Of a stretch of DNA of 64,000 bases, positions 11,561 through 57,548 are shown one piece after another (the first letter of the stretch is position 1; every line of letters begins with the position of its first letter). The position numbers and the translations under genes are program-made. Source of the stretch: Laetmonice hystrix. Lineage: Eukaryota. The stretch is from contig OZ249436.1 of the NCBI GenBank assembly GCA_965235115.1, positions 16,618,001-16,682,000 on the forward strand, written 5' to 3'. The notes under the pieces were generated by a model. The model saw only the letters and a list, made by a program, of their open reading frames with translations, was not told the origin of the DNA and made no database searches.

Positions 11561-13195
11561 CAGTGTCAGTAGACCTTCTGATCACTACCAGCCCCCTGAC
11601 AGATCACTACCCCTGCCCGGCTGATCACAACCAGTCTCTGACTTTTCACTAGTACCAGGCCTGACTGAGCACTACCAGCCCCCCTGGCAGATCACTAACC
11701 CCCCCCCCCAACCCCCAACCCCCCCCCCAACCCCCCGCCTGTCCAGCTGATCACTACCAGCCCTCTGACTAATCACTACCAGCTCCCTGACTCCTTGCTA
11801 CAAGCCCCTCCTTTTTTATAAATACCTCTTATAATTTATGTTATGACCCCTCAAAGTTTGTCGACGACACACTCAAAAGGACCCCTGGAGATGGACAGGA
11901 AACCCTAGTAACTAAAAGTACTGACTGGGAATGATCATGCAGGCAAGCGTGTCTTCACAGACATTGGCATTATATAACCTGGAGTTAATGATACGACAAG
12001 TTAACGTCGTAGAACTTAAAGACATGTATGATAAGAAATGATTATGCACCCCTGGCCCTGGTTTTTAGTTTGCAAACCGAGTCTTAAGACTAATCTCTTG
12101 TTTCAGCGCTTCTGATTGGTCTTTCAAATGAAGTCAGCCAATCAGAGACCATAACACAAGTCAGTATTAAAATTCCAGTGTTAAGATTGGTAAAATGACG
12201 AACTAAAATCCGTGTCAGGACTGGGTAGATCTAGAATTTGGAATGGGGGGGGGGGGGGAGAATCTGACTAATGGGCAGAATGAGCAGGTGGGCGCAACCA
12301 CGCCCCCCCCCCCTCTCGGATTTGCCACTTAGAATATACTTGTGATAACAAATGGAATTCATGGGGTTTTTTTGGCTCGATACTAGATCTATACTAGATA
12401 AATCAATCTTCATTGTCATATCTCATGACAGTGATGACTGGTGCAGTGGTGAGAGTACCTACCACAGGACGCCACTGACTCAGTCATCACAGTCAGACAA
12501 TGGCCATCAGCAACATAAAAAATAAAAAATTCAGTTGTAGACCTCTAATCAGTCTAGTCATTGTCATTGTCGTTGACATGATTGTCAAACTCAAAGCCAA
12601 AGGGAATTGTACTTGGCGTAGAGGGCACCACAGAGTCGTCTGATTGCTGTCTACAAAAATAATCGCAGTGACATCGTAAGAGTACTCAGACTGTCTCAGT
12701 ATTTTTGTATTATTGTCACACTCATACTCATAGACATAGTCACATAGTACTGTACCATACCAACGTCGACTACTGTGACTGTAGTGTAGTACTAGTCTAG
12801 AGTCTAGTGTAGCCTGTACCATACTATAGTCGTGTAGAGAGGTCTAACCTACCGTCTAACCTAACGTTAGATCATTAGATGTACCCGGTACTTGTTAGTG
12901 TCTGAGAGTAGTGACAGCAGATACGGTCCGGGCTGGTCGCCCCTGGAAACCAGTACGCCATAGGCCTACCGTATGTACTAATGGACCGGCCCCTGAGAGC
13001 CCGCGGTCCCTGGCCAAACTGGGTGGGACGGCCCCCCCGGCTCCACGTCCCGAGGCTGTACCATGGTCGGCCCCCGTCAACACCAGACACCGCCAACAAC
13101 ACAGCCTACACCGTCCCCACTCGACCACCCCCCACCACACATCACCATCACGATCACTCAGTCACTCACAGCATTGTCAAGTAAATGAGCCATAC

Positions 13196-13647
13196 CTCCT
13201 TCTCCCAGGCCTTGTCCTTCTAATATTGTAGTTGATACAGTTCTCTTAGTTTGTTAAATGTAAATTCCAGCAGGTTGTGTGGCTCTTCGTAACGTTTCAA
13301 TACCACATATGACAGGGGTTTCCTGGAGAAAATCTAAACCCATCCCTCCATCAAAACAAAATGGCACCAAACTCACGACGCATGCGTCAATCACGATGAT
13401 GTCATAATTGGCATTTTTAATGAAAATAGAGACTCTTAACAACTATTTTCCGACAGGAGTGATCATAGGGCTTCGATACAGACTTCTTCTTCGTCAGAAT
13501 CAGGCTCAAAAGACAGATAGCGTTGAATTACGCGCCTACATTAAACGATACAAAACTGTCACTCGACTGTCTTTGGCTGCTGCAGTCACCGGATAGGTTC
13601 TCCTGTCGTGGAGGTAAAATGTCCACCGGATGTGGCCACGAACAAGG
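13196..13647. promoter_or_regulatory. Probable original bidirectional promoter and first non-coding exons of TMEM184-like (-) and INTS1 (+)
   Basis: CpG-containing unique DNA between divergent genes. It has a minus-strand donor GAG|GTATGG at 13195, a plus-strand donor GAG|GTAAAA at 13614 and an ETS-like CCGGATGT near 13626. Confidence 0.45.
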
Positions 13648-14102
13648 ATGAAGGGAGGTAGATGTTCTTTGGCAACAAGCGAGGTCAGGCAACGACTGGA
13701 GTCTGGTGTCAATCACCCACGAGGCTCCGCCCACCAAGGCGGAGTTCTATAAATAGTCCTGGGGATTTCCCCGTTGTTGGCTCTGCACACTGACAGGGCC
13801 GGGCCGTGTGTGTCCTGGCCGGGTGCCCATGCAGCCCCCATGCAGCCGCGGTATCCACCCATACACCTGTCGGGGGAGGTTTTTAAACAAAAAATTATTC
13901 TAATAGGGCCTACTATGAATGAAGTGGCGGTGTGGCTGTAGGAAGAAGCCACCCATGGATGCGATGGTATTCATGCTCAGACGGCAAGTTGAGAATTTGG
14001 TGAAGAAAACATGAAAATTCTATTTAAGTCTGTGTTCGAGTGAAAGTTAAACTTGTGCACATGTATTTTAAAATGAAATTTTGTCACCATCATACAACAC
14101 AA

Positions 14103-14365
14103 CAGGGGCGGATCCAGGATTTAGGAAAAGAGGGGCCGGTTGAAATTAAAGGGGGGCCGAGCTGTAGGGTGTCCGGGGGCATGCGGGACAATTTTGGCAT
14201 CTAGAGTATCTGAAATGGCATTTCCTGAAATTTCCTGCATTCTGAGAAAGCAAAATGTTTGCTTTTACAGTTGCAAACAACAAAATTTTGTTTTTTTTTC
14301 TGATTGGTACCCTGACGAAAGGGGGGGGGCGGCCCCCTCGCCCCCCCCCCCTAAATCCGCCCCTG
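14103..14365. mobile_element. Short MITE of the CAGGGGCGGATCC family
   Basis: Termini CAGGGGCGGAT.../...ATCCGCCCCTG with internal poly-G/C. TSD not clearly resolved. Confidence 0.7.
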
Positions 14366-14844
14366 ACACAGTTCGAAGTGACACTGCTGGGACTGTTTTA
14401 GAACCAACTTACTATCGTTAATGGGTTTACAAAGCGCATTATAGGGCTTTGTAAAGGGCTCGCTTGTTGCCTACACTGTTCTTAGGCGGGAAGACGTTGT
14501 TTTGACAGTTTTACACTTCTTTTATTGAAAAATAAAAAATAAAACAAATTTCCAGGTCGGGGGAATTTCAGAGGTCGGGCGGGGACGCTAAATAAGTAAC
14601 TTTTTTATTTGCCCTAACTACAGTCAGTTAGGCAAAGTATTGATTTAAATATAATACTGGACTAGGCCTACTGTAGTTGTTGGGTTACCTACAGACTCAG
14701 GGGCAGATCCAGAGGGGTCGTGGGGGGGGGGGGGGCACCGGACTTAGGCGAGTGCCGGGTAGGCCTACCTATAATTTCCTGGGGGTTCTCAGTTTGGCCG
14801 GGGGGGGGGGGAGGGAAGTACTTCCCTTCGGACTGTATATTATA

Positions 14845-16290
14845 GTTGTTAGGTTGGCATAAGTCACCAGACTGCAGTCGTTGCCTGATCTCGCTTGTTG
14901 CCAAAGAACATCTACCTGACTGTAGTTGTTACGTTGACGTCAGTCACCAGACTGCAGCCGTTGCCTGACCTCGCTTGTTGCCAAAGATCTACCTGACTGT
15001 AGTGGTTAGGTTGACGTAAGTCACCAGACTGCAGTCGTTGCCTGACCTCACTTGTTGCCAAAGAACATCTACCTGACTGTAGTTGTTACGTTGACGTCAG
15101 TCACCAGACTGCAGCCGTTGCCTGACCTCGCTTTTTGCCAAAGAACATCTACCTGACTGTAGTGGTTAGGTTGGCATAAGTCACCAGACTGCAGTCGTTG
15201 CCTGACCTCGCTTGTTGCCAAAGAACATCTACCTGACTGTAGTGGTTAGGTTGGCAAAAGTCACCAGACTGCAGCCGTTGCCTGACCTCGCTTGTTGCCA
15301 AAGAACATCTACCTGACTGTAGTTGTTAGTTTGACGTCAGTCACCAGACTGCAGCCGTTGCCTGACCTCGCTTGTTGCCAAAGAACATCTACCTGACTGT
15401 AGTGGTTAGGTTGGCATAAGTCACCAGACTGCAGCCGTTGCCTGACCTCGCTTGTTGCCAAAGAACATCTACCTGACTGTAGTTGTTACGTTGACGTCAG
15501 TCACCAGACTGCAGTCGTTGCCTGACCTCGCTTGTTGCCAAAGAACATCTACCTGACTGTAGTGGTTAGGTTGGCATAAGTCACCAGACTGCAGTCGTTG
15601 CCTGACCTCGCTTGTTGCCAAAGAACATCTACCTGACTGTAGTGGTTAGGTTGGCATAAGTCACCAGACTGCAGCCGTTGCCTGACCTCGCTTGTTGCCA
15701 AAGAACATCTACCTGACTGTAGTTGTTAGTTTGACGTCAGTCACCAGACTGCAGCCGTTGCCTGACCTCGCTTGTTGCCAAAGAACATCTACCTGACTGT
15801 AGTTGTTAGTTTGACGTCAGTCACCAGACTGCAGCCGTTGCCTGACCTCGCTTGTTGCCAAAGAACATCTACCTGACTGTAGTGGTTAGGTTGGCATAAG
15901 TCACCAGACTGCAGCCGTTGCCTGACCTCGCTTGTTGCCAAAGAACATCTACCTGACTGTAGTTGTTACGTTGACGTCAGTCACCAGACTGCAGTCGTTG
16001 CCTGACCTCGCTTGTTGCCAAAAAACATCTACCTGACTGTAGTTGTTAGGTTGGCATAAGTCACCAGACTGCAGTCGTTGCCTGACCTCGCTTGTTGCCA
16101 AAGAACATCTACCTGACTGTAGTGGTTAGGTTGGCATAAGTCACCAGACTGCAGCCGTTGCCTGACCTCGCTTGTTGCCAAAGAACATCTACCTGACTGT
16201 AGTTGTTACGTTGACGTCAGTCACCAGACTGCAGTCGTTGCCTGACCTCGCTTGTTGCCAAAGAACATCTACCTGACTGTAGTTGTTAGG
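14845..16290 (-). repeat. Left 80-bp TIR-derived tandem array, 18 units
   Basis: The unit end ...TCTACC recurs at 14916, 14993 (3-bp deletion) and then every 80 bp from 15073 to 16273. 52 bp of the unit match TIR positions 1-52. Confidence 0.95.
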
Positions 16291-17624
16291 TTGACATGAG
16301 TCCAGTTAAAATCAATACTTTGCGTAACTGACTGAAAAGTTGTTGGGTTACCCACCGTACTCCCCTCCTGACTGTAGTTGTTATAGGCTGACGTAAGTTA
16401 TGTTATTATTTATACTTTGGCTAACTGACTGTACCTGTTAAGTTACCTACAATACTCTCCTCCTGAATGTATATCGCTTTTAGGTCGACCTATCAGTCCA
16501 CTTAAAATTAACTCTTTTAATGCCATTTCGTAGCTAGGCCTATAGCCCGAAGAAGGTTAACGTAGACTACATTAAAAGTATAGGCCTATAATGTGCAGGA
16601 GACGGGCCAAAAGCATCCATCTTACAGTTACAAACGACTTAGGCCTATGATATTTGTAGTAACTTTAGAACATTTTTTTCTAGCTGGGGCGGACTGATGT
16701 TATATAGACTGATCTAAAAACTTTAAAGTAGGCCTACGTATGCCAAGGAGAAAGGGAATTCAAAACGTATAGATAGGCTGTAAATTGCATGAAAATGTAC
16801 CAAATAATATTTAGTTTTAGTCTATAACTAGGCCCTACCAATGACTATTAGCCTAAAATGTATAATTTTCTGGTGAGAACCAGCCGGCTGGCTCATTTCG
16901 GGAATGACAATTCTAGGTCAGACAGAGGCTGCCAACTGCAACCTGACCCACCACGATATCGGACGGCGTCACCGTCATGGTCAATTTGATGCCTTCAGGA
17001 ACTCATAAAGAAGAGATGCCGACAAATTCTCACTCTCTAGAGAGCTGTCCCTTGTACAACTGCAGCACACAACGTTGTTGAGTTCACCAGTTTTACACGT
17101 GTTGACAGAAGTGCAATACGTCCATGCTGTTTGTTGGGTCATAAAAAAAATATATAGGCTAGCCTATATTGCTCAAATCAATGGAAAAAAATAGTGAAAA
17201 CCCACCCCGATCATTATATATTTTTTATGACATGTCATAATATGTATAGGCCTACGGTGACCATGCCAAGCGTTTGACAGGCATGATTTTAGCAAATATC
17301 TTAAAAATATAGAATATAATTATGATGGAGGAGATCTCTGATAATGACAGGACCATCAAGAAGTGTGAATGCCGAGTGCATGGGTCAGTCACGAGAGTCG
17401 GGAAGAGGGTGCAAGCTTGTAGGCCCGATACTGTAGCAGAATATGGTCACTGCTGAGCTATGCTAGGTCAGTCGGTCGCCTCCCCACCAGCCTCCCTCCA
17501 TCCCTGCGTTATGATTCGTTCTGGTCAATTAGACGCCGATACACAGACGTGCCTGCATGTTACAACCGTTTGCGCGGGAACGCGCGTCTCCACCTAACGG
17601 TCAGAAGGAGATCGAGGCCAGTAA

Positions 17625-18700
17625 GGGGCAGACCATTTAATAGCGGGGGGGGGGGGGGAGGGTATGGTTTTTCCTTCTGACCAAACTTTTTTTTTTGCTT
17701 CCAACAAAAAACAAACAATTTTTTTTTATCCCTAATCAAAAGCAAACAATTTTTTTCCCGAGGTGGCAGAGACAAACTTTTTTTTTCCAGGACATAATTC
17801 TGCAGCAACCATTGTGTTATCCCGTAAATTTCTGTTCCACAGACATAGGCGCCGGAAGATATTCACAGGTGGGCGGGGGGCACCAAATCATAGGTCCCAA
17901 GTTCCAAGTTTTGAAATGCTGGTGATAAGAACGTCGAAGGCGCGAAGTAGGCGCGAAGTCTCGAGCGGGGGGTCTGGGGGCCCTCCCCCGAAAAAAAAAT
18001 TGAAAATTAAAGTGCCAAATACACGTTTTCCTGGCATCTGGGAACAAAATCTAGGCCCTCTGTCGACGGTCTGACCATCTCCTGCCACCTTGGAGCTGGG
18101 GGGAGGGGAACTATATGCTTGCCCCCCAGCTTTTGAGCTGGGAGTGGGGGTGGGGGTGGGGGGGCAACAGGCCGGTTCCTACATAATTATAACATCTCTA
18201 CCACAGCCTTAGGAATATATGATTGTACTGTATTCAGCTTTGAACCATGCAGTACTTTTATAATAGACTATGAAACGAATTGGAAGTTCTAATTGTCTTC
18301 ACAGATTTGTGGGCTTTCAAATATCTTGTAGTGCAAGCGAATGTCTACATAAAACAATTGATCAAGTTATACATACTAGTATTCAATTGCATGTCATAAT
18401 TGTTCAGACTGATATGTTTTACTCAGTATTGTATAGAGTATGCCTAAATAAAACTGGTGACCGAGCGGAGCGAGGAAAATTTTTGGTCTTCTTTTAATTT
18501 TTTAGCAGTTTCGGGCAGATTTTTTTTTATAAATCTGCTTCCTGTCAACAATCTATTTTTTTTCACACACATTGCTAAACAAACTATTTTTTTCACACAC
18601 ATTTGAGAGCAAACTATTTTTTGGGGTAAACTTGGCAAACAAACTTTTTTTTTACGAAAAAACCATACCCCCCCCCCCCAGCTATTAAATGGTCTGCCCC
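17625..18700. mobile_element. PIF/Harbinger-like non-autonomous element, containing a further short insertion at about 17845-18180
   Basis: TIR GGGGCAGACCATTTAATAGC...GGTATGGTTTT mirrored at 18659-18700; TSD TAA at 17622-17624 and 18701-18703. Confidence 0.8.
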
Positions 18701-19347
18701 TAAATGGTTGTTACAGTATAGGCCTAGATCTACATGGTTGGGAGCCATTCTAATCAATTGGATCCAACATATTGATACGACTGTTCTTGTCCGCTCCCTG
18801 ACGAGCTGTATCATAACATAAATATAGAGTTTATAGTAGGCCTATTCAGGGGGCTATTGAGGGGACTCGACGAACAGATCCAAGGTTGTCCCTGGTTAAG
18901 TAGGATAATTGTTAGGCAACACTGAAAATATTGGGGGGGGGGGGGGCTTTAGCCCCGTAGCCCCCTCCCCTTGAATTACGGCCCTGATATAGTATCTATC
19001 ATGCATACATGTGTGCTATCGGGGGGGGGGGGAGACTCCCCTCTCAGCTGTGAAATATGCATTGTGCAGTCTGGGCTCAAAAATTTTTTTTCACTGAAAG
19101 GGGGTGTGCGCCCCCGATCGACCTATCCCCTCCATCCCCTCTTCGATAATTCCTTTAGGCCTAGTGTGTCAAATTGTAAATACGCCAGACACGTTTCAAA
19201 CTCTGCAAAATTGTGGAATTTCTAATAATTATTCTTTAAATTACAGGTAAATGTAATTACAATTTACATGGGATGAGACATGTATACATCGACCAAAGAT
19301 GTATCATACATTGACATACATACATTTGGACATTGGGACATACATAC

Positions 19348-19607
19348 CAGTGGCGGATCCAGGATTTCAGAACAGGATGGGGGGCAAATTTTGTTAGATA
19401 ATCAGTGGCCCATTTGGGTCTGTGGGCCCTTCCCCTAGAATTTATTTTTCAGGAACGTCGGAAACATGTTTTCTGAACATGTAGAGTAGAAATTTCTTCC
19501 AAATTCTTTAACGAAATTCCATTATTTTTAAGCATGAAACATAGAAAATAGACAAGATTTTGGAAAAAGGGGGGCCGGGCTGGGTGCCCCCCCTGGATCC
19601 GCCACTG
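19348..19607. mobile_element. Short MITE (CAGTGGCGGATCCAGG TIR)
   Basis: 16-bp TIR CAGTGGCGGATCCAGG/CCTGGATCCGCCACTG. Confidence 0.75.
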
Positions 19608-20125
19608 CATATACTGTCCTCTTTGGGTGCAGACGTTTGAACGTTACGAATGGACCTGTTTGGTCCAGGCGTACGGTTCGCACCAAGGCTGCATGGATTG
19701 AAACTTTATCTATACATGTTTGCCCTCTCGCTGCAGCCTTCGGAAAATATTACGGATATTATGTTTTTTTTATTCAGAATCGCGGAATTTTTTATTTTTG
19801 TATTTGTATTTTGTATTTTTTTACGGATATTCCGTTGGCAGTTTACGGAAACAATATTACGGAACTCGTTATTTTTACGGAAAATATCCGGTTCCTTTGT
19901 TGCCAGACATTTTCCGTAAATTTAACGGAATTTTCCTAACAGTGTACGATGCACCTATAAGCTTAGCAGTTGACCAGCTATCCGATATTCTGGACTGTAT
20001 TGCTAAGAGTAGGAAACCTCAGGTAGAAGTCTACTCCTCGCCGTAGTGTTTTGCACCTGTCAAATTGTTGCAACATGCACCTCCTTGAAAAGAATCCTGG
20101 ATCCGGCCCTGCTACGCCAGACATT

Positions 20126-20326
20126 CCGGTGGCGGATCCAGCAGGGGGATGGGGGGGGGGGGGCTTAAGGCCCCCCCCCCTATAGCTGACTCCAGGGTTA
20201 TCAGTTTGCATTATGTCTACGGCACACCTAAGAGGTTTGATATAGGCCTACATATACATCAAGCGCCCGGCCCCATCGCAAAATCCTGGATGTATCCCCC
20301 CTTCCAAAATCCTGGATCCGCCCCTG
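20126..20326. mobile_element. Short MITE of the GGCGGATCCAG family, adjacent to another truncated end near 20095-20111
   Basis: CCGGTGGCGGATCCAG...CTGGATCCGCCCCTG termini. Confidence 0.6.
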
Positions 20327-20559
20327 CATTCTTGCATCAGTGGTTTTATCTGTTGCCTGCGTCAGCAGTCACTTTCATGGCCGACTGTTATGTGATCGGT
20401 AGTTAGGTGTGTCTGGGTAATTGGGCGCGATTCACGCCGATTTCGAAGGCCCTTGCGGCTAATTATGGATGTGTGTACTTTATGTAGACGTCATAAGTTA
20501 TTTGTTATTTTTGTCGATTTTTCCAAGGCATGGACCGAGTACCAAGAACCCTACTGTGT

Positions 20560-21240
20560 TGCCGCTAGCATCCTTCGATCATGTGTCTCACAGTTATATT
20601 AGGGGATGCGGCTGATAGACAAACGATAGTAGTGGGGGACAACGAGGAGCTGGCTATTCAATATTGTGAGATGTATACATATTTAGGCAGTATTTTCACA
20701 TGTGATGGGAGAGTAAGTACTTATAGGGAGCATGCTAGGAGTGTCAAGAAGCATCTTATGAAGTTGGTTTCATTTCATAGACGAAACGCGGATATATGTC
20801 TTTTATAGAAGAAGGTAATGGACGCAGCGTTCTTGTCAGCTATTTTGTATGGCTGTGAGAGCTGGTTAAATGTTTCTCATACAGAGATGGACAAGATTTA
20901 CCACTCAGCACTAAAGGCATTAAGTAATATGTGTAAGAACCACGACTGTGAATGATTTGTGCCTGGCAGAGTTAGGGTATCCGCCCCTTAGATACTTCGT
21001 GTTACAGAAACAGAGGCTCTACTTTGAGAAGATGATTAATTCAAGAAGTGGTTTAGATGATGACCCTCTAATGATCGCTATAGATCTAGCACGTAGGGAG
21101 GGTATCTAAAATGGGGGAGGAAATTGTTAGAGGTATAGTATACCGAGTCTGGCGACTATATGACTACAGGGATCAAGTAAGTCAAAGTACGCTACATATA
21201 GAATAACTAACCCTACTCTTGAGGTGTATATATTTGCGTT
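20560..21240 (+). pseudogene. Degenerate non-LTR retrotransposon (LINE) ORF2 fragment, RT C-terminal region
   Basis: Broken translation YTYLGSIFTCDG...AAFLSAILYGCESW...ELGYPPL contains the typical post-RT thumb motifs (YxYLG, LxYGxExW), with stops and frameshifts. Confidence 0.7.
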
Positions 21241-21827
21241 GTGGTGACACATTAAAACCCGGAACATTTGAGAATGCAGTTATTGATAGTTTACTTTTGA
21301 AGAAATATTTTACCGATGTGAATGAGGTAATAAAAATACCCTTAACACTATAAATTTCTCTTGTGTTGGATTCATATGTATCAATTAATATTCACCATAT
21401 ATATAGAAGTACATTATGTTGTTCACGTTTTGATACGAAATTATAGGTTAATATATATCATTTTCCTTCAATTGAGTATTGTCTCTGCAGCCAGAAAGCA
21501 TGGCTCTGCATTGACACTCCCATTTGGACATTTGGACGCCATTTCGTGGTGAAAACTTAGACAAAATTTATCACTGCTAAGGGAAAATTTTAAAATAACG
21601 GTCATGATACAAACATAACAGACGTATGAATAAATGGCATATTGGTATTGATAAGGAATTTTACGCAGGCTACAGCTTGATGTGGCCGTAATTAAAGTAA
21701 ATAAATTATAGGCCCCTGCATAATTAGGCCTATCATACATCATACATCTAGGCAGGTTTAAAGGATGGTATGTTCATGTATATGTTAACCTAACAACCAC
21801 GCTCAGGAAGACAGTATACCCCCCCCC

Positions 21828-23511
21828 CCTACAGGTAACACGCAGTATTCCAGCAATATTACTGGATGGTTGCACGAGTATTGCACTTTGGGTAACATTG
21901 CTGCAACACTATTAGAAGATAGTTAAAGGTAAAAGATTTCAGCAATATTGAGTCAATGTTAGATGCCAGCATAAAGTATACAGTCCTGTTTTACACAGTT
22001 TGAATGTATGTTGATACAGTATTGTAGCAATATGCAGGCGCGTGTCCAGGATTTTCAACAGGGGGGGGGGGTCTCAGAAAAAAAAATTAGGAGCTCTGAG
22101 ACGCGATTCCCCGCCATTTAGGGCTCATTTTAGGGCATATTTTATGGATTCATCGCTCAAGGGGTTCAAAACGGCGGGAATGCTTAGAAAAAATCGCTCA
22201 ATGGGCTCAAAACGGCGGGAATGCTTAGAAAAAATCTATGCTGTGTGAAAGCAGGGGACCCCTGGACCCCCCCCCCCCCGGACACGCGCCTGAGAGTTCA
22301 ACAGAAATTTAATGTATGTTGCCACAGTATATTGCGGCAATATGAGAGTTCAACAGAAATTTAATGTACGTTGCCACAGTATTGCAGCAATATGAGAGTT
22401 CAACAGAAATTTAATGTATGTTGCTGCAGTATTGCAGCAATATTACAATTCAACATTTAGGCCTACATGTAATGTACGTTGCTGCAGTATTACAACAATA
22501 TTACAGTTCAACAGTATTTATATGAAGGCCTATTGCTGTAGTATTGTAGCAATATTATGCTACGGTATTCTGAATGTATGTTGCTGCAGTATTGCAGCAA
22601 TATGAGCAATGATGTAATGATTGGTGTATTTCTCGTGGAACACACATGGATATCTACACGTGGAAATGATCGGTGTATTTTCTCGTGAAATACACGTGGA
22701 TATCTGGGTCCCATGGAAAGAAAAAGTCATATTAAAATATGTAAATGTCTATGATAACATTTTCCCAAAGAAAAACTGGCTAGCTCTGTACGACGATTGA
22801 CTTTGAGAAAGAACCGTTGTGAGAAGCTGAAAGTTTAACAGTACTGGCAACTGGATCAATCGTAGCCAACTTGTCAGCTCTGTGTGTATACAGAGCTGAT
22901 GCTAGGGTGACCCAAAAATCTAGTGAATTTGTTATATTACAATTTCAGAAGCAAAAATTATATCACGAAGTTAGGAGCTTTGCGGTGGTGTAAATCTTTA
23001 AGGCGGTGGTGTAAATCTAGATGAATCTAGATGGTTTTCCGGACGATTTCTTTTTCTAGCGAAATACCCCTTATTACATATGTGGATATGTCCGCAGAAT
23101 GTCACCTGGAGAAATGGAAAACTGGGTGATATGACATGGAAAATGACACTTGTAATGCACATGGATTACTCTGGATATCCACGTGTATTCCACGGGAAAT
23201 CCACGAGTTGTGCCTGCTGGGTATTAGGCCTATAATATTAAGATGATATTGTTTAAATATTGTTCCAGTATAATATCACAATATTATGAAAACACAACTT
23301 GCGAATGTTGCTGCCATGGTACAACATTGGTGCAACAAAATGATCATGCTGCAATAATATTAAAATAATATTGATGGAAAGTTGTGCCAATGTAGGCTAA
23401 TCATAATATTACTGAAAACATTACTGCAACATTCCTGAGTCTTCACCAACATTGCTGCAACGAAATGATCATGTTGCTGCAATGTTACTTGAACATTGCT
23501 TTGTTAGCTGG
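21828..23511. mobile_element. Degenerate CCCAG-terminated (CMC/EnSpm-like) element or elements with (A/G)TTGC-GCAA(T/C) subterminal repeats
   Basis: Right ends ...TGTTAGCTGGG (23511) and ...GCCTGCTGGG (23221); many GCAATATT/ATTGCAGCAAT repeats; the left end is decayed. Confidence 0.4.
22035..22292. mobile_element. Short MITE (CAGGCGCGTGTCC TIR)
   Basis: TIR CAGGCGCGTGTCC/GGACACGCGCCTG, interrupting a local repeat unit GCAATATG|AGAGTTC. Confidence 0.7.
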
Positions 23512-24174
23512 GCCAGCAACTGAAACCAAAAGGTTAACTGAACAACAGTTATAGGAGGGGAGTATTGTGGGTAACCCAAGAACTACAGTCAGTTCGGCAT
23601 AATATTGATTTTAACTGGATTCATGTCAACCAAACAACTACAGTCAGCAGGGGAGTAGGCCTACGGTTGGTAACCCACCAACTATACAGTCAGAAGAGAC
23701 AACTACAGCCAGGAGAGGAGTACTGTAGGTACCGGTGTTTTTTGGCAACACGTAAGGTCAGGCAACGAAAGCAGTCTGGTGACTGACGTCAAACTAACAA
23801 CTACAGTCAGGAGGGGAGTACGGTTGGTATCCCAACAACTAGTCTAAAGTCAGTTAGGCAAAGTATTGATTTTACCTGGACTCATGTCAACCTAACAACT
23901 ACGGTCAGGAGGGAAGTACCTGGCGGATCCAAGGGGGGGGGGGCATGGGGGCACGTGCCCCCTCCCGGCAATATTTCCCAGGAAATTAGGTAGGCCTGTA
24001 TCCGGCGCTCGCCCAGGCCGGGTCCCGCCCCCCCCCCCCCCGGCAACACCCGGTGCGCCCCCCCCCCCCCACGGGAACGACACCTCTGGATCCACCCCTG
24101 ATTAGGCCTACGGTTGGTGACACAACAACTACAGTCAGTTCGCCAAAGTATTGATTTTAACTGGACTCATGTCA

Positions 24175-27100
24175 ACCTAACAACTACAGTCAGGTAGATG
24201 TTTTTTTGGCAACAAGCGAGGTCAGGCAACGACTGCAGTCTGGTGACTGACGTCAAACTAACAACTACAGTCAGGTAGATGTTTTTTGGCAACAAGCGAG
24301 GTCAGGCAACGACTGCAGCCCGGTGACTGACGTCAACGTAACAACTACAGTCAGGTCGATGTTCTTTGGCAACAAGTGAGGTCAGGCAACGACTGCAGCC
24401 TGGTGACTGACGTCAAACAAACAACTACAGTCAGGTAGATGTTCTTTGGCAACAAGTGAGGTCAGGCAACGACTGCAGTCTGGTGACTTATGTCAACGTA
24501 ACAACTACAGTCAGGTAGATGTTCTTTGGCAACAAGCGAGGTCAGGCAACGGCTGCAGTCTGGTGACTGACGTCAAACTAACAACTACAGTCAGGTAGAT
24601 GTTCTTTGGCAACAAGTGAGGTCAGGCAACGACTGCAGTCTGGTGACTGACGTCAACGTAACAACTACAGTCAGGTGGATGTTCTTTGGCAACAAGCGAG
24701 GTCAGGCAACGGCTGCAGTCTGGTGACTGACGTCAAACTAACAACTACAGTCAGGTAGATGTTCTTTGGCAACAAGCGAGGTCAGGCAACGACTGCAGTC
24801 TGGTGACTTATGTCAACGTAACAACTAAAGTCAGGTAGATGTTCTTTGGCAACAAGCGAGGTCAGGCAACGACTGCAGTCTGGTGACTGGCGTCAAACTA
24901 ACAACTGCAGTCAGGTAGATGTTCTTTGGCAACAAGTGAGGTCAGGCAACGACTGCAGTCTGGTGACTGACGTCAACGTAACAACTACAGTCAGGTAGAT
25001 GTTCTTTGGCAACAAGCGAGGTCAGGCAACGACTGCAGTCTGGTGACTGACGTCAAACTAACAACTACAGTCAGGTAGATGTTCTTTGGCAACAAGCGAG
25101 GTCAGGCAACGACTGCAGTCTGGTGACTGACGTCTACCTAACAACTACAGTCAGGTAGATGTTCTTTGGCAACAAGTGAGGTCAGGCAACGACTGCAGTC
25201 TGGTGACTGACGTCAACGTAACAACTACAGTCAGGTAGATGTTCTTTGGCAACAAGCGAGGTCAGGCAACGACCAGGGATGAAAGTTTTCAGGAAATTTC
25301 CTGAAATCAGGAAATTTGAAAAAATCCCCCCCCCCCCCCAAGAAATAACACCCAAAAAAGAAAATAGGCCTAGATCTATAGGCAAAAGAGGTAGGCCTAA
25401 GCCAAGGCTAAGTATTGCCCTGGACTGTGTGGTGGGCAATTAATATCAAATGAAACAATATCCCCTTCCAGGACGTTTTTTAACACCATGCAGCTCAATA
25501 TATCTCTACCTGCCAAAGTTCGTTTATAGATGGGGATATTAGAGTGTCTCAAACCCGTTCAGTGTCACGGGTGCCACCGTGCATAGGCCGGTCTGCCGGG
25601 GGTGCTGGTCCCTGTAGCTGTGGTGACATCGCTCACATAGACCGGCCCGCGTGGGCTGACTTCTACCGGCACGCGGTGGCGTCTGTCCCGTCTGGCAGGC
25701 ACGGCCCCGTGTCGCTGTGGTGAGAGCGACTCACCTCAGGTAATGACTTCAGGCAAAATTGATGGTCAGGCAGCTGCGAAGCCCGTTGATTCAGGCTTGC
25801 CATTATGCCATATCCATGCGCGAGTTTTGCCTGAGCGCTCACTTAGTGAACGAGACTATAGTATAGACAGACCGGTCTGTCTAGTCCCGGCGTTGGTGAT
25901 AGTGATTAGGCTGACGAACTATGCACCATCACAATGTCACTCCTCACAGGAAACTGGGTCAATTTAGTTCTATGAATCTGCCTAGTATATATGTCAGTAA
26001 GTTCTCATAATGTGTTCTTGCATATAAATTTGAGGATAGTGGCATTACGTAAGTGGTTTTCACTGAAGTTTTGGGGTTGTCAGGACTTTTCATTACATTT
26101 GTCGATCAGTGCAGGTGTCCTGATAAGACCGGAAGTGACAATTTTCACAACAACATGAGTGGCACATGGACACACGGGCTGAACCACTCGACTCAGCGAA
26201 GCCTGTGTTGCTTGGCTGAGAGCCGCTGAGGGTCGTGACTGCTGAGGGTCAAGACTGATGGACAGCCTGTGTGGTCAGTCTAACACATGGAAGCTGTTTG
26301 ACAACGTAATCGGTTGCATTTTGGACGCTAAAAGCCGACTGGATTCCAATGTTGGAGAGAGACGGCAGAGCCAGGCAGAGGTTGACATGCACTGACTGTG
26401 ACTGAGTGACAGGCAAGCAACAGCCTTGAACAGGGGCATGGACTGATGAGTGATGGAGTCTATCCAGCAAATTTGCAGGGGTGGGGGGTTGAGGGGGGGG
26501 GGGGTGGCGACTAAATACTGAGGACTAGGCCCTATAATATATAATAGCTAGGAGGCCTTATCGGATCATGATTGTCTGCTGTTCCTAGCCTGACTTTTTT
26601 TAAGGGGGGGGGGGGGGGTAAGCCTTGGATGTGCGCATGAACAAATATTAATTATGGACATTGGCCCCCCCCGCTCCCCCCCCCCCCCCCGGTCAGAATT
26701 TCAGGAAATTTTACAGCTGGCCACTTTCATCCCTGAACGACTGCAGTCTGGTGACTGACGTCAAACTAACAACTACAGTCAGGTAGATGTTCTTTGGCAA
26801 CAAGTGAGGTCAGGCAACGGCTGCAGTCTGGTGACTGACGTCAAACTAACAACTACAGTCAGGTAGATGTTTTTTGGCAACAAGCGAGGTCAGGCAACGA
26901 CTGCAGCCCGGTGACTGACGTCAACGTAACAACTACAGTCAGGTCGATGTTCTTTGGCAACAAGTGAGGTCAGGCAACGACTGCAGCCTGGTGACTGACG
27001 TCAAACAAACAACTACAGTCAGGTAGATGTTCTTTGGCAACAAGTGAGGTCAGGCAACGACTGCAGTCTGGTGACTTATGTCAACGTAACAACTACAGTC

Positions 27101-28820
27101 AGGTAGATGTTCTTTGGCAACAAGCGAGGTCAGGCAACGGCTGCAGTCTGGTGACTGACGTCAAACTAACAACTACAGTCAGGTAGATGTTCTTTGGCAA
27201 CAAGTGAGGTCAGGCAACGACTGCAGTCTGGTGACTGACGTCAACGTAACAACTACAGTCAGGTGGATGTTCTTTGGCAACAAGCGAGGTCAGGCAACGG
27301 CTGCAGTCTGGTGACTGACGTCAAACTAACAACTACAGTCAGGTAGATGTTCTTTGGCAACAAGTGAGGTCAGGCAACGGCTGCAGTCTGGTGACTGACG
27401 TCAAACTAACAACTGCAGTCAGGTAGATGTTCTTTGGCAACAAGTGAGGTCAGGCAACGACTGCAGTCTGGTGACTGACGTCAACGTAACAACTACAGTC
27501 AGGTAGATGTTCTTTGGCAACAAGCGAGGTCAGGCAACGACTGCAGTCTGGTGACTGACGTCAAACTAACAACTACAGTCAGGTAGATGTTCTTTGGCAA
27601 CAAGCGAGGTCAGGCAACGACTGCAGCCCGGTGACTGACGTCAACGTAACAACTACAGTCAGGTCGATGTTCTTTGGCAACAAGTGAGGTCAGGCAACGA
27701 CTGCAGCCTGGTGACTGACGTCAAACAAACAACTACAGTCAGGTAGATGTTCTTTGGCAACAAGTGAGGTCAGGCAACGACTGCAGTCTGGTGACTTATG
27801 TCAACGTAACAACTACAGTCAGGTAGATGTTCTTTGGCAACAAGCGAGGTCAGGCAACGGCTGCAGTCTGGTGACTGATGTCAAACTAACAACTACAGTC
27901 AGGTAGATGTTCTTTGGCAACAAGTGAGGTCAGGCAACGACTGCAGTCTGGTGACTGACGTCAACGTAACAACTACAGTCAGGTGGATGTTCTTTGGCAA
28001 CAAGCGAGGTCAGGCAACGGCTGCAGTCTGGTGACTGACGTCAAACTAACAACTACAGTCAGGTAGATGTTCTTTGGCAACAAGTGAGGTCAGGCAACGG
28101 CTGCAGTCTGGTGACTGACGTCAAACTAACAACTACAGTCAGGTGGATGTTCTTTGGCAACAAGCGAGGTCAGGCAACGAATGCAGTCTGGTGACTGACG
28201 TTAAACTAACAACTACAGTCAGGTAGATGTTCTTTGGCAACAAGTGAGGTCAGGCAACGACTGCAGTCTGGTGACTGACGTCAACGTAACAACTACAGTC
28301 AGGTGGATGTTCTTTGGCAACAAGCGAGGTCAGGCAACGGCTGCAGTCTGGTGACTGACGTCAAACTAACAACTACAGTCAGGTAGATGTTCTTTGGCAA
28401 CAAGCAAGGTCAGGCAACGACTGCAGTCTGGTGACTGACGTCAAACTAACAACTACAGTCAGGTGGATGTTCTTTGGCAACAAGCGAGGTCAGGCAACGG
28501 CTGCAGTCTGGTGACTGACGTCAACGTAACAACTACAGTCAGGTAGATGTTCTTTGGCAACAAGTGAGGTCAGGCAACGACTGCAGTCTGGTGACTTATG
28601 TCAACGTAACAACTACAGTCAGGTAGATGTTCTTTGGCAACAAGCGAGGTCAGGCAACGGCTGCAGTCTGGTGACTGACGTCAAACTAACAACTACAGTC
28701 AGGTAGATGTTCTTTGGCAACAAGTGAGGTCAGGCAACGACTGCAGTCTGGCGACTTATGTCAACGTAACAACTACAGTCAGGTAGATGTTCTTTGGCAA
28801 CAAGCGAGGTCAGGCAACAA
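24175..28820 (+). repeat. Right 80-bp TIR-derived tandem array, about 40 units (14 + 26), interrupted by a hAT-like insertion
   Basis: GGTAGATG (or a variant) at 24193, then every 80 bp from 24274 to 25234 and from 26782 to 28782. Reverse complement of the left array. Degenerate units also near 23735, 28960 and 29160. Confidence 0.95.
25274..26735. mobile_element. Non-autonomous hAT-like element with 6-bp TSD (hAT6-like), nested in the right array
   Basis: 13-bp TIR CAGGGATGAAAGT/ACTTTCATCCCTG, TSD AACGAC on both sides and subterminal TCAGGAAATTT motifs. Removing it restores the 80-bp register exactly. Confidence 0.85.
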
Positions 28821-30389
28821 CTACAGTCAGGAGGGGAGTAAACCTGGCGGATCCAAGGGGGGAGCATTGGGGTCACGTGCCCACCCAGGCAAAACTGAGA
28901 CACCCCTTATTATTTCCTAGGAAATTAGGTATAGGCAAAGTAGTGATTTTAACTGGCGTGTTTTTTTGGCAACAAGTGAGGTCAGGCAACGACTGCAGTG
29001 ACTTATGTCAACCCATAGTACAGTTCTATGGTCAACCTAACAACTACAGTCAGGAGGGGAGTAGGGTTGGTAACACAACAACTGTATAGGCTATAATGCA
29101 GTCAGTTAGGCAACGTATTGATTTTAACTGGACTGATGTCAACCTAACAACTACGGTCAGGTAGATGGTTTTTTGGCCACAAGCGAGGTCAGGCAACGAC
29201 TGAAGTCTGGTGACTTACGTCAACCTAACAACTAGATCTACAGTCAGAAGCCGAGAAGGGGAGTGCAAAAGGTGAAGCCGGGGGTTCGGGTTGCTCGAAC
29301 CCCCCTCCCCCACCCAAAATTAATATAGATTGGCCTAATTATGGTTGGGACCGCCCCCGATCTCAGTTGGACCCCCCCATATAGGCCTACCCCAATCTCA
29401 GTTCTGCCTACATCCCTGGGAGTACGGGGTAATCTAATAAGTACGGTAGTTAGGCGAAGTATTGATTTTAAATGGACTGATGTCAACCTAACAACTACAG
29501 TCAGGAAGGGAGTATTGTAGGTAGGGGGCCTAACCTTACACTACCTACGGTAAGCTGCCGAGATATCTCGGTTGGAGGGAAGGAATCGCTTGGCGCAAGT
29601 AGATCTAAATGAGTAGGCCTATCACTGGGGAATCGGGGGGGGGGGGTCACATGGGGTCCGGCCCCTCCCTCTCCCTAAAATTTCGTGGCGCCTACGGCTG
29701 CTGATCATGCATGGCACCCGACGTCATTGTGTCTTTTGACATTGCCATTGGTCATTGAATAGCTTATTTTGTGCTCCAAAATGCATTAGATTTCACCAAA
29801 TGACACTTTGATTTTCAAAATTGTATTTTAGTGGGGCTTCGAAGTAGATCTACCCGCCCCCACCCCCTGGGACCAAACTCACACTCACTCTTGATCAGAT
29901 TAGGGCCTACCTTATGGAACAAACTATCTGTCCACATCAGAAAGTTAAGTGAGAAAAATGAATTTAAATCCGAAATTAAAAAATTTTAGGCCTAGATCTA
30001 TAGCCTACCAATCTCCTATAGGCCTGCATGTGTTTCTCTCTGATAATAATCGCTAAATGTGAAATGGATTAGATCTATGGTGGCTTACTTTGTTACAAGT
30101 TTGATTTTTAGATCTATATTTACTCTGTATGTAACGTAGGCCTAATTGTATTGTGAATATGAATTTGGATTCATTCTAAATGTAGGCCCTAATTATGTTT
30201 GTTGATTTCTAGGACCCAGGACCCGTAATCCTGGTTAAATATGGTCAATAAAAATTTAAGAAAAACTGCCTAACACACTGTAGCCTATACTCTTTTTTTA
30301 CCAGATTACTGGCAGATAATGAGTCAGTTAGGCCTAGGCTTAGCCGCGTGTTAAACAGCATAGATACGCCTAGATCTATGCCTATAATC

Positions 30390-30565
30390 AGGGGTGTAGC
30401 CAGGATTTTTTGAGGGGGGGGGGGGGTGCTTAGATCCGTGACAAGCGGAAACCGCGCACATGTGCCCGTCTTCATCATTCAAAATTCAATCTTTACTACT
30501 GGTGTAAGCCTGGGTGGGGGGGGGCGAGGACCCCCGAGCCCCCCCCCCCCCCTGGCTACACCCCT
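30390..30565. mobile_element. Short MITE (AGGGGTGTAGCCAGG TIR)
   Basis: 15-bp TIR AGGGGTGTAGCCAGG/CCTGGCTACACCCCT. Confidence 0.7.
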
Positions 30566-30844
30566 ATGCAGGCTATGCCTATGGTAAAATGCTGATGGAT
30601 GAAGATAACATGCCCCCAACACGTGGTGAATGCGGTATGAGGGAATTCCCAGTGACGTCATTATATGGTTTACTGGTCTTCTAATGTGAAGAGTTCCATT
30701 TGGGCGGAGCCTCGTGGGTGATTGGCACCAGACTCCAGTCGTTGCCTGACCTCGCTTGTTGCCAAAGAACATCTACCATGAAGGGAGCCTTTATTAGATG
30801 TGGCTGATAATTATTGTCTTTAAAGTTAGGAAACACTCCATACA

Positions 30845-33800
30845 ATGTCAAGGAAGCCCATCAAGGGCAAAGGTAACGCAATTGATTTCATCGAGTACCG
30901 GTAGATGTTATTTGGTCGTGTCCCGTCGCTCAAAATAGGAGGCCTGCCCTTCCTACACTGCTGCTACGCTAGTGCTACAGCCTACAGCACAGGCTACACC
31001 AGTCACACTCACTGACTTAGTATTTTGTTAGGCAGTGTAGGCCCCTATTTAGCCGGCAACGGCTTAATAAGATTGGGTATCTTAGTTTGACTAATCCAAA
31101 CGGATTGCTAGGGTTAGGGTCAGTCTTAGGGTTTTTATTTTTGTCTCAAATTGGGTGTTAATTGTTAATAGTCTGCTATTTTATTTAGCCATAGTACTGG
31201 CAGAGAGCCATTATGATAATTATCCAAAACGATTGAAGCCTAATGGTCACATGACCCCACCAAATGCCAGCTAAATATATCCTATGTTAGTATGAAGAGT
31301 AGGGGCCTTCCATAAGTTAAGGCCTTGATCTACTGCTGCGGCAGAGGACCGCAAGCGGCCGCAAGAGAACGCCTTGGGGTCGCTGCAGCATGACCGCAAT
31401 GCGACCACAAGGTAGCAGCAACACTTTTTTCACTGATTGACCAAAGCGGCTGCGTTGCACACAAGATGGCATATGCGTCGTCCGTTGTTCTGGTGACGTA
31501 ACAATGCCAATCTTCTGATTGGCTGGTTCCTTGCGGTTGAGCAAATCACGCCGCAAAATATCAAACATGCTAGATGCTGATCCACCAAAGCAGACACCTT
31601 GCGACTGCCCTGCCGCAAGCACGTCTGCAAGAGAATCGCAAGGAAATTGCAGCAGTGAATCAAGGCCTTTATGAGCAATTCTCAAAAGTAGCTTAGTACA
31701 AGGCCACCCCTTCTTAACATTCTCCTTTTTGGCTAAAAATCGTTAAACCAATTTCTAATGTGTTAAAAGTGTTAGGAGCAATTCATAAAGATGGCAAGTG
31801 TAGACAGTGAGCCTGTTAGACAGAGTATGCATCTCTGTACTACCGTATACAGAGACGGACGCCACTTAGTGCAAGTTCCTGGTGTGTTCGGTCAAATCAT
31901 TCGACCGCCATGAAAACCCCTCCCCTGCCCATATGTCTGGACTGAATATTGATAAACACGCTTAAAGTAACTTATCTCACTTATTTCCAAGTTTGGAAAG
32001 CATGACGAGACATAATAAGGGCAGCACAAAGTCTGGAATCAATGAATTTCACTCTCTGCCTATCGCGGCCATTTTGACCTCCCGGGTCAGGGAGTAGCCT
32101 GGTACCCTGCCTAACAGACGCGTCCGCTATGTTACGACATACGTAGAGCAGGGGACCTTGCTAGGTCAGAGAGATGCATGCTGGGACATAAACAGGCAAC
32201 AGAAGCCGCAGCTGTACGACACTTCGGAATTTGATGTTTTATCCTTAAAATGCTTGTCGAACCACTAAAAGAAGACGTGGCCCATGATAAATGGATGTCG
32301 GTGAGTTGATCGGTACATGAATTTGTGTTGCCAGTGACACACCAATTTTTAACATTGAGTGGGCGTAAGCCTCACTGGCTGAGGCTTACTACGTAGGCTA
32401 TGAGCCTGTGTATCAGACTGGGTGTCATATGCCTTGGCCACAACGCTGCCTGGCCCCTCCTCAAAAACCAGCCCCTGATGGTGGATTTTATGATCGCCCA
32501 CCATGATAGCAGCCTGGGTGGATTTTATGATCACCCACCATGATAGCAGCCTGGGTGGATTTATTGCCCACCTCGATGATAGTAGCCTGGGTGAATTTTA
32601 TGATCGCCCACCCCGATGATAGCAGCCTGGGTGGATTTCATTAATGCCCACCCCGATGATAGCAGACTGGGTGGATTTTATGATCGCCCACCCCGATGAT
32701 AGTAGCCTGGGTGGATTTTATGATCGCCCACCCCGATGATAGCAGCCTGGATGGATTTTATGATCGCTCACCCCGATGATAGCAGCCTGGATGGATTTTA
32801 TGATCAGCCACCCCGATGATACCAGCCTGGGTGGTTTTGTAAAAGCTCAGCCTAATGATAGCAGCCTGTTCTGGTATGGACCTAGCAAAATGAAATCATT
32901 CAGGTTTAGTTCAGTAATAAAGCTGATATGACATAAATTTCTCAACATTGTCAATTTCAGGCCATGCACCAGCAGGTGACCTGATTGCCTTAGGTAAGTC
33001 AGGCTTCAATATTGAGTTTTGTTTGACTTGCTTCAGAGGTCTGACATACTTAAAGAAAATGAAACAAAGTTTTGGGTACTTGATTCATTTTGCTATCTTG
33101 TATCGACAAATGTATGGCCTTCTACGAGCAGTTTCCATAGAAATGGTATTTACTGCAAAACTTTAATATATTTCCTTGAAATAAGCTCAGGATTTCCTCT
33201 GTTTAATAATTAGGATCTAAGGTTCGTGGGGCCGATGCAGAACCCAAGTTATTGCCATCTAAGAAGATCAGTCTGGCCCCAGTTGGAGCCAAGCGAGATG
33301 CCCCAGTCAGTAGTCAAAGTAGCCTTGCTGCCAAGAAACCCAAGGTGGGGCAACCATTTGCCCTCGGCCGGGCCGCTGAAGCAGAAAGCAGAAGTTCTCC
33401 TACTACACAACTACAGCAGTTTGAGGAAATTGCTAAAGAAGGTTTGGACCAAGTCTAATTAAACACCTCAATGTTTACTTTGTTAATAAGTCTGTATGAA
33501 GATTTTAGAAGCATAGCTTCAACATGTTTAAAAGTTGTATGGAGATAACCTTAACCACCACAACACTTGATTTTATTTCCATTTACTTTGAACAGTCGAG
33601 CCCCAAAATCTTCTCAATGCTATTCTTGATGCTGGTGAGGATGACGCCGAGATCGAGAAGCTGCTTTGTGGTGCAGTGCAGTACCTCAAGGTGAACAGGA
33701 TCAAACCGGACCCATCAATGTTTCTCACGCTCATGTTTCTAGCCAAGTCAAGACCCACCTTATTCCATGGTGAAGTTGTCATTAAGGTAAGTCAAAAAAA

Positions 33801-52375: not shown

Positions 52376-52955
52376 GTTACCAAGTGGTCAGCATGTCCCT
52401 CTCGTACTTGGACGGCTTTAGTTAATTCGAACCACCGACACGCCATACAGAGTGGATGGAGATCTTTCATTTGTCACATCTTATCAGTTGACTGCAGTAG
52501 ATCAGTCAACCATAACACCATAGAGATGGTTCGGATGAATTAAATGGTAAAACCCAACTTCTTTCATATTATTTGGCTAAAATATTAGGCAGAATAATAT
52601 TTGTGCCACAAGAACACTTGTAAATATATCTATAGTAAAATAAAGATGTCCTACATCATATAAGAGCTTATCTTGTGAATGGAGTGAACCAAAAGCTATG
52701 ACAAGCTATGTTATAAACAAAAGAGTTGTCTCTTTTTTACGAGCCAATAGACATCTAAAAGGACGACTGCAAACAGAAATCTACTTTCCCAATTTTTAAA
52801 AACATTTATTTTGGTATAAAGTTACCTATGTACACATAAAACCTCCATGTCCATGTCCTTGTCCACTAGTCAGTAAACGTTCTTTGCCAAAAGTTCCAGC
52901 AGACACTTTTCTAGATCCAGATCTACTCTAAGCACAGTCCTTGTACAGAGGTATG

Positions 52956-56641: not shown

Positions 56642-57220
56642 GGTCCTTCACAATTTTATTGTTACTATAGCTGGAACATAAAATTCTGTGGTCAGAATGT
56701 CATGGATCAGGGATCATTGGCAGTGCTGAGACCAAGGGTGAGGGGGGAATATAAGGCCTATTTTTGTGACCTATGACATCATTGACATAATTGGATAATA
56801 AAAATAACCATGGTGGATTGAAAGTCACTCCCTAATCAATTTGTAAAATATTTAGACACAGTGCAGAACTGCAAGAAAAAATTCTCAGTTAGGCCTATAC
56901 TAGACTAGATAGTCCTGATGACATGTTCACAATCACAGGGCCGTAACTAGAATTTTTTGAGTGGAGGGGGGGGGGGCAGTGTGTGTGTGTGGGGGGGGGC
57001 AGTGGGGGGGGGCAGTCACGGGCATATCCAGGAATTTGGGAAAGGGGGTGTCCCCCGTGTGATCGCCGAAGTAGTCAGAGTGCTGCCCCCCCTGGCCCTG
57101 CCCCATTTTATTCCTAGTTTGAAAAAAAAAATTCGGGAGATTCTGCCCCCGAACTACAACACTCCACTCCAGCTAGCAGGACTTCAACAAGCCTGTGGAC
57201 GTTTCGAGCGTCGGCACCTC

Positions 57221-57548
57221 ACCCCAGGCTCGCTATGCTCGCTCGAGGTAGTCCCCCGTCCCTGTCCACCTGTCTTCAACTTCAAGTTCAACAATCGAAA
57301 CCTCCCGCGAAACGAACCACAACTTGCGGTCGACTGTCCGATGAAAGATGTAGATCTAGAGCCAAATCTGGGAAAGAATTTTTCAGAATTTCTCAGGAAA
57401 GGCGCTATACTCGGAGAAAAGATATTCACTCGTGTGAGTAAATGAATTTCTTTATCATTACTTTTAATATTAAGTATGCCTAAAGTGGCTAAAGGCAAGG
57501 GATGGTCGTGTACGTTTTCTCGCGTAGTAATTTCGAACTACATTCAAT
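57221..57548. promoter_or_regulatory. Compact bidirectional promoter of EME1/MRPL27, including a probable non-coding EME1 first exon
   Basis: CpG-rich DNA between divergent genes; minus-strand donor GGG|GTGAGG near 57220 and acceptor TTCCAG| near 56671; TISU/YY1-like CAATATGGCAGC at the MRPL27 ATG. Confidence 0.55.

Follow-up and report, generated by a model that had tools for sequence, protein, structure and literature searches.

Across a 64,000-nucleotide stretch of DNA from Laetmonice hystrix (assembly GCA_965235115.1, contig OZ249436.1, positions 16,618,001 to 16,682,000; the whole stretch is called the window here), two palindromic words, TAGGCCTA and TAGATCTA, occur 28 and 14 times, respectively, and most copies lie within a single non-coding mobile element of 17.1 kb, referred to as the host element. 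Where comparison with a homologue is possible these words are insertions at TA dinucleotides that do not depend on context, and they are very probably excision footprints left by TA-specific DNA transposons that move by cut and paste, of the IS630-Tc1-mariner/pogo kind. An earlier note on this DNA had proposed such scars, with the additions that two active donor families had made them in repeated visits and that they map open chromatin of the germline; its interpretation is partly supported by the present analysis. The mechanism is already textbook; the new contribution is that alleles and paralogs were seen directly to differ by presence or absence of the words. Assays usually show footprints in small numbers, whereas here they are dense within natural DNA. 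If general, they would constitute an overlooked and countable mutation class by which past transposition could be dated and mapped after the elements themselves are gone.

Two abundant words and their insertion at TA

The host element contains 23 TAGGCCTA and 10 TAGATCTA, in agreement with the approximate hand count made before, and every one of them lies outside its tandem arrays, that is, in 12.5 kb of non-array DNA. Markov models of order 1 to order 3 give chance expectations of 0.16-0.38 and 0.10-0.14 for that DNA; for the whole window Markov models give 0.8-1.4 and 0.7-0.8, close to the prior estimate of about one of each per 64 kb. Enrichment in the element thus exceeds 50-fold for exactly two words, which are also the only ones among the 16 palindromic TA-N4-TA words with more than 3 copies in the range 12220-30380 (24 and 12, respectively). 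Scar density is 2.65 per kb in the host element, and about 7% of the TA dinucleotides in its non-array DNA fall within one word or the other.

Shorter and longer variants are enriched in the element as well, namely the 7-mers TAGGCTA/TAGCCTA (7 observed versus 1.2-1.7 expected) and TAGACTA/TAGTCTA (4 versus 1.1-1.3) and the 9-mers TAGGCCCTA/TAGGGCCTA (5 versus 0.13), and compound 14-mers are present, as claimed before, at 18719, 25365, 29987 and 22458 (four versus a crude expectation of 1.2). TACATGTA is unenriched there (1 versus 0.3-0.6), and TAGTACTA was rejected as part of the signal given that 12 of its 13 window copies belong to one tandem array. Relatives of the two words with one mismatch are slightly raised in number (12 versus 7.2 expected, on a background with the motifs collapsed); a calculation without such an excess (7 versus 9.6 and 5 versus 6.0) was discarded, as its background had been trained on the motifs. 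Decay per base is small, with a point estimate of about 2% and an upper bound of 4.4%, and the scarcity of one-mismatch relatives together with decay of at most about 4% per base indicates that the motifs are young. No flank preference was detected, the flanks of the 42 motifs are mutually unrelated, and clustering within the element is mild (10 gaps of at most 60 bases versus 5.3 expected, P 0.02). The host element and its motif sites are as follows, no strand being assigned to them.

13657..30777: host element, 17.1 kb, non-coding, GG..CC ends, terminal inverted repeats of about 77 bp
29382..30378: densest cluster; TAGGCCTA at 29382, 29614, 29987, 30137 and 30329; TAGATCTA at 29600, 29845, 29993, 30070, 30109 and 30371; 9-mers at 29901 and 30183; 7-mers at 30001 and 30281
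16531..16855: cluster; TAGGCCTA at 16535, 16581, 16640 and 16729; 7-mers at 16563, 16818 and 16849; 9-mer at 16829
14663..23232: scattered 8-mers; TAGGCCTA at 14663, 14760, 17247, 18837, 19156, 20243, 21725, 22458 and 23225; TAGATCTA at 21081
18719..18732: compound TAGGCCTAGATCTA
22458: compound of TAGGCCTA with TACATGTA
23656..23663: TAGGCCTA, 6-bp insertion at the TA of a degenerate unit; three empty paralogs (16347, 23808, 29051)
29233..29240: TAGATCTA, 6-bp insertion at the unit TA; 14 empty paralogs
23840..23846: 7-mer variant TAGTCTA, 5-bp insertion; five empty paralogs
24103..24110: TAGGCCTA at the unit TA immediately right of an inserted miniature inverted-repeat transposable element (MITE); plain TA in other unit copies
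30137..30144: TAGGCCTA within a 9-base block of a repeat; the INTS1-intron copy (minus strand, about 48950-49100) lacks the block

Five of the 33 sites in the element have an unscarred homologue (23656, 29233, 24103, 30137 and 18725). The three paralog comparisons first offered for insertion (23656, 29233 and the 7-mer at 23840) were reproduced with 3, 14 and 5 empty copies, respectively, and in a repeat common to the element (about 30117-30268) and the INTS1 intron the motif-bearing 9-base block is found in the element copy only. In paralog alignments and in pairs from other organisms alike, an empty site has a single TA and a filled site a TA on either side, while alignments show the insert to be fixed whatever the flanks and neither a copy nor the inverse of the flanking sequence. 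Empty sites read G-TA-C and C-TA-C, and degenerate units at 16382 and 23552 show plain gains from TA to TATA. The 9-mer at 30183 was not counted as a further case; BLAST gives a 7-base gap there, but the flank diverges in the MAFFT alignment. Paralogs, repeat copies and other organisms thus agree on insertion at TA rather than conserved fixed sites, the point on which the earlier note had staked its reading.

The comparison with other organisms rests on metagenome contigs, which were scanned for places where three motifs lie no more than 30 bases apart; 76 loci were retrieved. None is similar to the window (blastn), and their character is mixed: some are satellite-like, a few gene-dense and protist-like, and many non-coding and rich in inverted-repeat elements. 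Among the motif-selected loci that remained after removal of 19 (16 satellite-like or low-complexity, 3 AT-rich tandem) and of alignments above 99.2% identity, 41 site rows held a motif and 15 of these had a clean partner six bases shorter; of 139 control rows (TA-N4-TA), one did. The 15 rows represent 8 distinct sites (7 GGCC, 1 GATC) with differing flanks, in two homology groups; the lone control row abuts a GGCC indel, so that there is no independent control case. A wider tally over 60 loci assigns 11 of 15 six-base indel records to these motifs. In one pair of alleles (L062/L071), 96.6% identical with 43 substitutions, all three six-base indels are GGCCTA and they are reciprocal, one allele having two of them and its counterpart the third, although the ratio of three scar indels to 43 substitutions is biased upward by the selection of the locus for motifs. 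In a further group (L023), a palindromic element carries motifs in one arm that are missing from the opposite arm.

Three public sequencing runs, all from a single sample that may be that of the window itself, were compared over 16310-24160. A 286-base contig with four TAGGCCTA is identical to 16482-16767 in all three runs, and the motifs are therefore real DNA and, as far as testable, no assembly artefact. At 18719-18732 a contig of depth 1208 (run X1) has TAGGCCTA but lacks the GATCTA that follows it in the window, which makes the GATC unit an addition and the GGCC unit common to the repeat family. In two motif-rich intervals of 16531..16855 the alternative contigs are 27 and 24 bases shorter, 33 and 17 bases there belonging to motifs; over all eight intervals, by total length, the window exceeds the alternative contig in seven and equals it in one (24 of about 19,600 pieces being listed), an excess that is weak as evidence.

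Probable excision footprints and their possible makers

An element of this kind would insert at TA and duplicate it, and its excision by a staggered cut would leave a few terminal bases on each flank; end joining would then seal the flanks, converting TA to TA-GGCC-TA or TA-GATC-TA. Trimmed or longer joins would yield the 7-mers and 9-mers, whose enrichment is consistent with end-joining repair, and the newly made TAs would be open to renewed hits, giving the compounds. Three cut geometries could produce the same 8-mer, namely two bases left per end (GG plus CC), three bases annealed over two, or a cohesive four-base GGCC or GATC tip, and the 9-mers TAGGCCCTA/TAGGGCCTA point to G or C as the third terminal base. 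The donors would presumably be two families, one tipped GG..CC and the other GA..TC.

The scar has the shape of a Tc1/mariner footprint, as was recognised before: according to the passages cited, what remains between the TAs after end joining is the transposon's first or last 2-4 bases (PMC6943129; PMC7913693; further passages in PMC2874221 and PMC5224488). The window motifs are inserts of fixed bases within that canonical 2-4, independent of flanks. Empty paralogs in several copies, and reciprocal indels in other organisms, mark the state as derived and polymorphic, with 7- and 9-mer repair variants; within the window the comparison covers 7 of the 33 sites. Sleeping Beauty (TACAGTA/TACTGTA, PMC6943129) and ZB (PMC7913693) are described as likewise converting a single TA to TA plus 2-4 fixed bases plus TA, with heterogeneous shorter end-joining variants, as here; unlike theirs, the present inserts are the palindromic GGCC and GATC and form a dense natural polymorphism rather than the product of transfection assays. 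The pogo element Passer is described as duplicating TA, leaving footprints of 0-4 bp and inserting preferentially at active promoters and at the 5' ends of genes, as here; the cited passages give no GG or GA tips (PMC9976928; PMC7386202). A survey of excision in rice, as far as cited, also identified natural scars by comparison of homologous sequences; mostly deletions and fillers were found and just 8 of 94 excisions were perfect (PMC4423477), whereas here one or two stereotyped words dominate. In the literature searched, which left subscription papers and Repbase outside, no description of TAGGCCTA or TAGATCTA as scars was found; judged by their listing, the papers retrieved for related words did not concern scars either, and those for TACATGTA all treated plant-pathogen promoter motifs. 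Some pogo-like families start TA-GGG, and both Tc1, with its footprint TACATGTA, and Minos leave a six-base gain at TA as here, but with other inserts, TACATGTA being unenriched in the host element.

Several observations weigh against excision footprints. Of the donor families postulated before, no credible TA-GG..CC-TA or TA-GA..TC-TA element was found in the 64 kb of the window, and no transposase family appeared among 55 reading frames scanned. The elements that the window does hold are hAT-like, Harbinger-like, one TA-CAG and one Sola2-like, labels which we take from tip and duplication type. A single TA-GGG..CCC-TA element, 1572 bp and non-coding, was found on a motif-rich contig (L036); it shows that GGG..CCC tips at TA do occur beside these motifs, but it comes from another organism and is without a transposase, and no GA-tipped TA donor was seen in the window or in the metagenome contigs examined. 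Among the 33 element sites, 26 lacked a comparison and two (18719 and 21081) are common to another copy, the TAGATCTA at 21081 being present in an alternative contig too. Given that at least one TAGGCCTA, at 18719, is shared with the high-depth repeat contig, the motifs are not all independent local visits. The metagenome loci were chosen for carrying motifs, and rates from them are therefore biased, the indel nature of the sites being unaffected. Two motif-free intervals are also 12 and 18 bases longer in the window than in the alternative contigs, no indel at a motif occurs among the 12 of 240 run-contig indel rows listed, and the rice result implies that uniformity of footprints is not universal.

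Candidate donors were tried and rejected. For an element shared by two metagenome loci (L045/L048), a 3-base duplication of TWA fits better than a reading as TA-GGG donor. The ends of the host element (13657-13680 and 30754-30777) carry TA-GATG..CATC-TA four bases inside the true tips, but its 9-bp target duplication lies four bases beyond that sequence, and the likeness to the GATC scar is judged coincidental; moreover, excision of MULEs (Mutator-like elements) is described as precise or flank-deleting (PMC5225508, in the part cited), and the host element therefore cannot be the scar maker. Donors of the ISL2EU/Harbinger/Spy (PHIS) group, GG-tipped ones included, were rejected because their targets mismatch the G-TA-C and C-TA-C empty sites: in the passages cited, ISL2EU duplicates AT (A-AT-T), Harbinger duplicates TWA, and Spy targets AAATTT without duplication (PMC4482050). 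On the contig of the 1572-bp element, the right flank (1985-2001) consists of stacked TA-bounded words of the CCGG, GTC and CATG types.

The same insertions might have another maker, one that leaves the fixed insert with no complete round of insertion and excision: a transposase or other nuclease whose attack on a target is aborted, or an element with AGG..CCT or AGA..TCT tips that cuts T^A and duplicates nothing. The 8-mer can as well be read as T-AGGCCT-A, no donor was found despite 42 motifs in 64 kb, and Spy is described as an element without target duplication (PMC4482050). However, both TAs are kept in the 7- and 9-mer variants, plain TA-to-TATA gains are present in units of that kind at 16382 and 23552, and the targets of Spy, ISL2EU and Harbinger all misfit the empty sites, which leaves a different maker unlikely.

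Less probable still is that selection near promoters keeps or creates the motifs as transcription-factor or structural sites, the reading given to TACATGTA in Phytophthora; an oomycete MYB protein is described as binding that word (PMC11134190). Two of three promoter-like segments do contain motifs, but these are presence/absence indels between near-identical alleles, are densest in a non-coding mobile element, are missing from homologous repeat copies and have few one-mismatch relatives (the 12 versus 7.2 given above); a factor might nevertheless use them secondarily. If footprints of this kind are general, a TA-flanked palindrome that is enriched near promoters is not necessarily a site bound by a factor. 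It is just as improbable that the motifs are mostly passengers, whether parts of MITEs or satellites copied with their families or products of local slippage or flank hairpins. The sharing of 18719 with the depth-1208 contig is of that nature, as is the grouping of 14 metagenome loci, mostly TAGGCCTA-rich and satellite-like, in one cluster; against it stand the unrelated flanks of the 42 motifs, an insert that neither copies nor inverts its flanks, and paralogous copies without the insert.

Distribution among genes and putative open chromatin

The DNA of the window is of animal type and contains spliced genes: INTS1, an EME1-like gene and ribosomal L27 were each confirmed by Pfam matches within single exons. 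Named matches to the three families came from 8 of 23 frames, plus another INTS1 exon. The segments that bear on the distribution of the motifs are the following.

32901..52400 (plus strand): INTS1 gene body, with Pfam INTS1 domains; motif-poor control with one TAGGCCTA, at 38734
12226..12968: promoter-like segment left of the element, a putative promoter; TAGATCTA at 12226 and 12384, TAGGCCTA at 12961
56890..58795: interval separating a divergent gene pair, EME1-like and ribosomal L27; four 8-mers, at 56890, 57351, 57668 and 58788

The single motif in the INTS1 body matches the earlier figure of about one, and it is the only one in all gene bodies (32901-56650, 23.7 kb). A few more had been placed near promoters, and this holds for two of three promoter-like segments, with 1.4-1.5 per kb, but not for the segment upstream of INTS1 (observed/expected CpG ratio 0.64), where 8-mers occupy 0 of 112 TA sites. 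The CpG ratio is 0.61 in the element, 0.56-0.65 in the promoter-like segments and 0.33 in INTS1 intron-like DNA, the last delimited by a heuristic exon mask; a motif is present at 33 of 923 TA sites in the element versus 1 of about 609 in the intron-like DNA (P 5e-7). This pattern fits avoidance of gene bodies that would be methylated, judging from their CpG depletion, and the non-coding, CpG-richer interior of the element may accumulate scars by being easier to hit, more tolerant of insertion, or both. Outside the element, however, the correlation of motif density with CpG ratio is gone (0.07, P 0.68, 39 one-kb bins). The motif tracks a higher CpG ratio coarsely, and, given the empty INTS1 upstream segment, the proposal that scars map germline open chromatin is unproven.

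Local hopping or selection against transient insertions could equally shape this distribution. That the clustering reflects local hopping plus purifying selection against transient insertions into genes, rather than germline accessibility, is a serious possibility that falls just short of an even chance. The bare TA sites upstream of INTS1, the absent CpG correlation outside the element and the mild clustering of motifs all agree with it, and local hopping is described for ZB and Sleeping Beauty (PMC7913693, in the part cited). Conversely, INTS1 introns tolerate arrays and a TA-CAG MITE and yet have that single motif, and Passer, in the passages cited, favours active promoters as well as the 5' ends of genes (PMC9976928). 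More broadly, and rather doubtfully, a main class of small germline mutation in this and other invertebrate-like genomes might consist of TA elements with GG or GA tips that serially insert and leave. They would add TAGGCCTA and TAGATCTA to accessible DNA free of methylation, at a rate differing from that of point substitution by no more than one to two orders of magnitude. If so, the density of the motifs would record germline open chromatin in the sequence alone, and it would also give rise to apparent promoter 'motifs'.

The host element, its neighbours and other contigs

The host element is flanked by a 9-bp target duplication (13648-13656 and 30778-30786) and has MULE/foldback-like anatomy. 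Target duplications of 8-10 bp are given as a MULE feature, and long inverted ends with a 9-bp duplication are shared with MULE/foldback elements (PMC5225508, in the part cited); unlike in these, no transposase was seen, there being no Pfam match in the 3 frames scanned of 21 frames of at least 90 amino acids in 11500-33000. Many short elements are nested inside it, and its tandem arrays are as follows.

14843..16302 (minus strand): left 80-bp tandem array, inverted; no motif
24164..28828 (plus strand): right 80-bp tandem arrays, split by a 1.46-kb insert at 25274-26735

The insert has CAGGG ends and a 6-bp duplication and carries motifs at 25365, 25371 and 25392 and a 9-mer at 26526, whereas the three 80-bp arrays have 0 motifs at 180 TA sites; array homogenisation could be the cause. 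The TAGGCCTA at 14663 lies exactly at the inversion junction of two opposed copies of the degenerate unit (14605-14710), which suggests rearrangement at an excision break.

Short elements at 17625-18700 and 31320-31668 have 3-bp duplications, TAA and TTA, respectively, and are presumably Harbinger-like; the 17625-18700 region has very high contig depth in public runs X1-X3. An INTS1 intron holds an intact 290-bp TA-CAG..CTG-TA element (49718-50007) with 30-bp perfect inverted ends. A 2.1-kb element at 60441-62528, with GGGCG..CGCCC ends, a 4-bp duplication and no Pfam match in its short frames, we take to be Sola2-like from these features.

Among the metagenome contigs, ten (L019, L037, L039, L040, L070, L074, L076, L079, L085 and L086) are satellite-like with 17-116 TAGGCCTA each and mostly a very low CpG ratio; scars possibly seeded a satellite there. 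Scans of viral sequence gave 17 loci with triple TAGGCCTA, only 3-9 copies each and mostly tandem repeats, and one match for the end of the 1572-bp element. Three protist-like, gene-dense contigs (L043, L058 and L083) carry abundant TAGATCTA, TACATGTA and TACCGGTA, and the oomycete promoter motif TACATGTA may be of similar origin.

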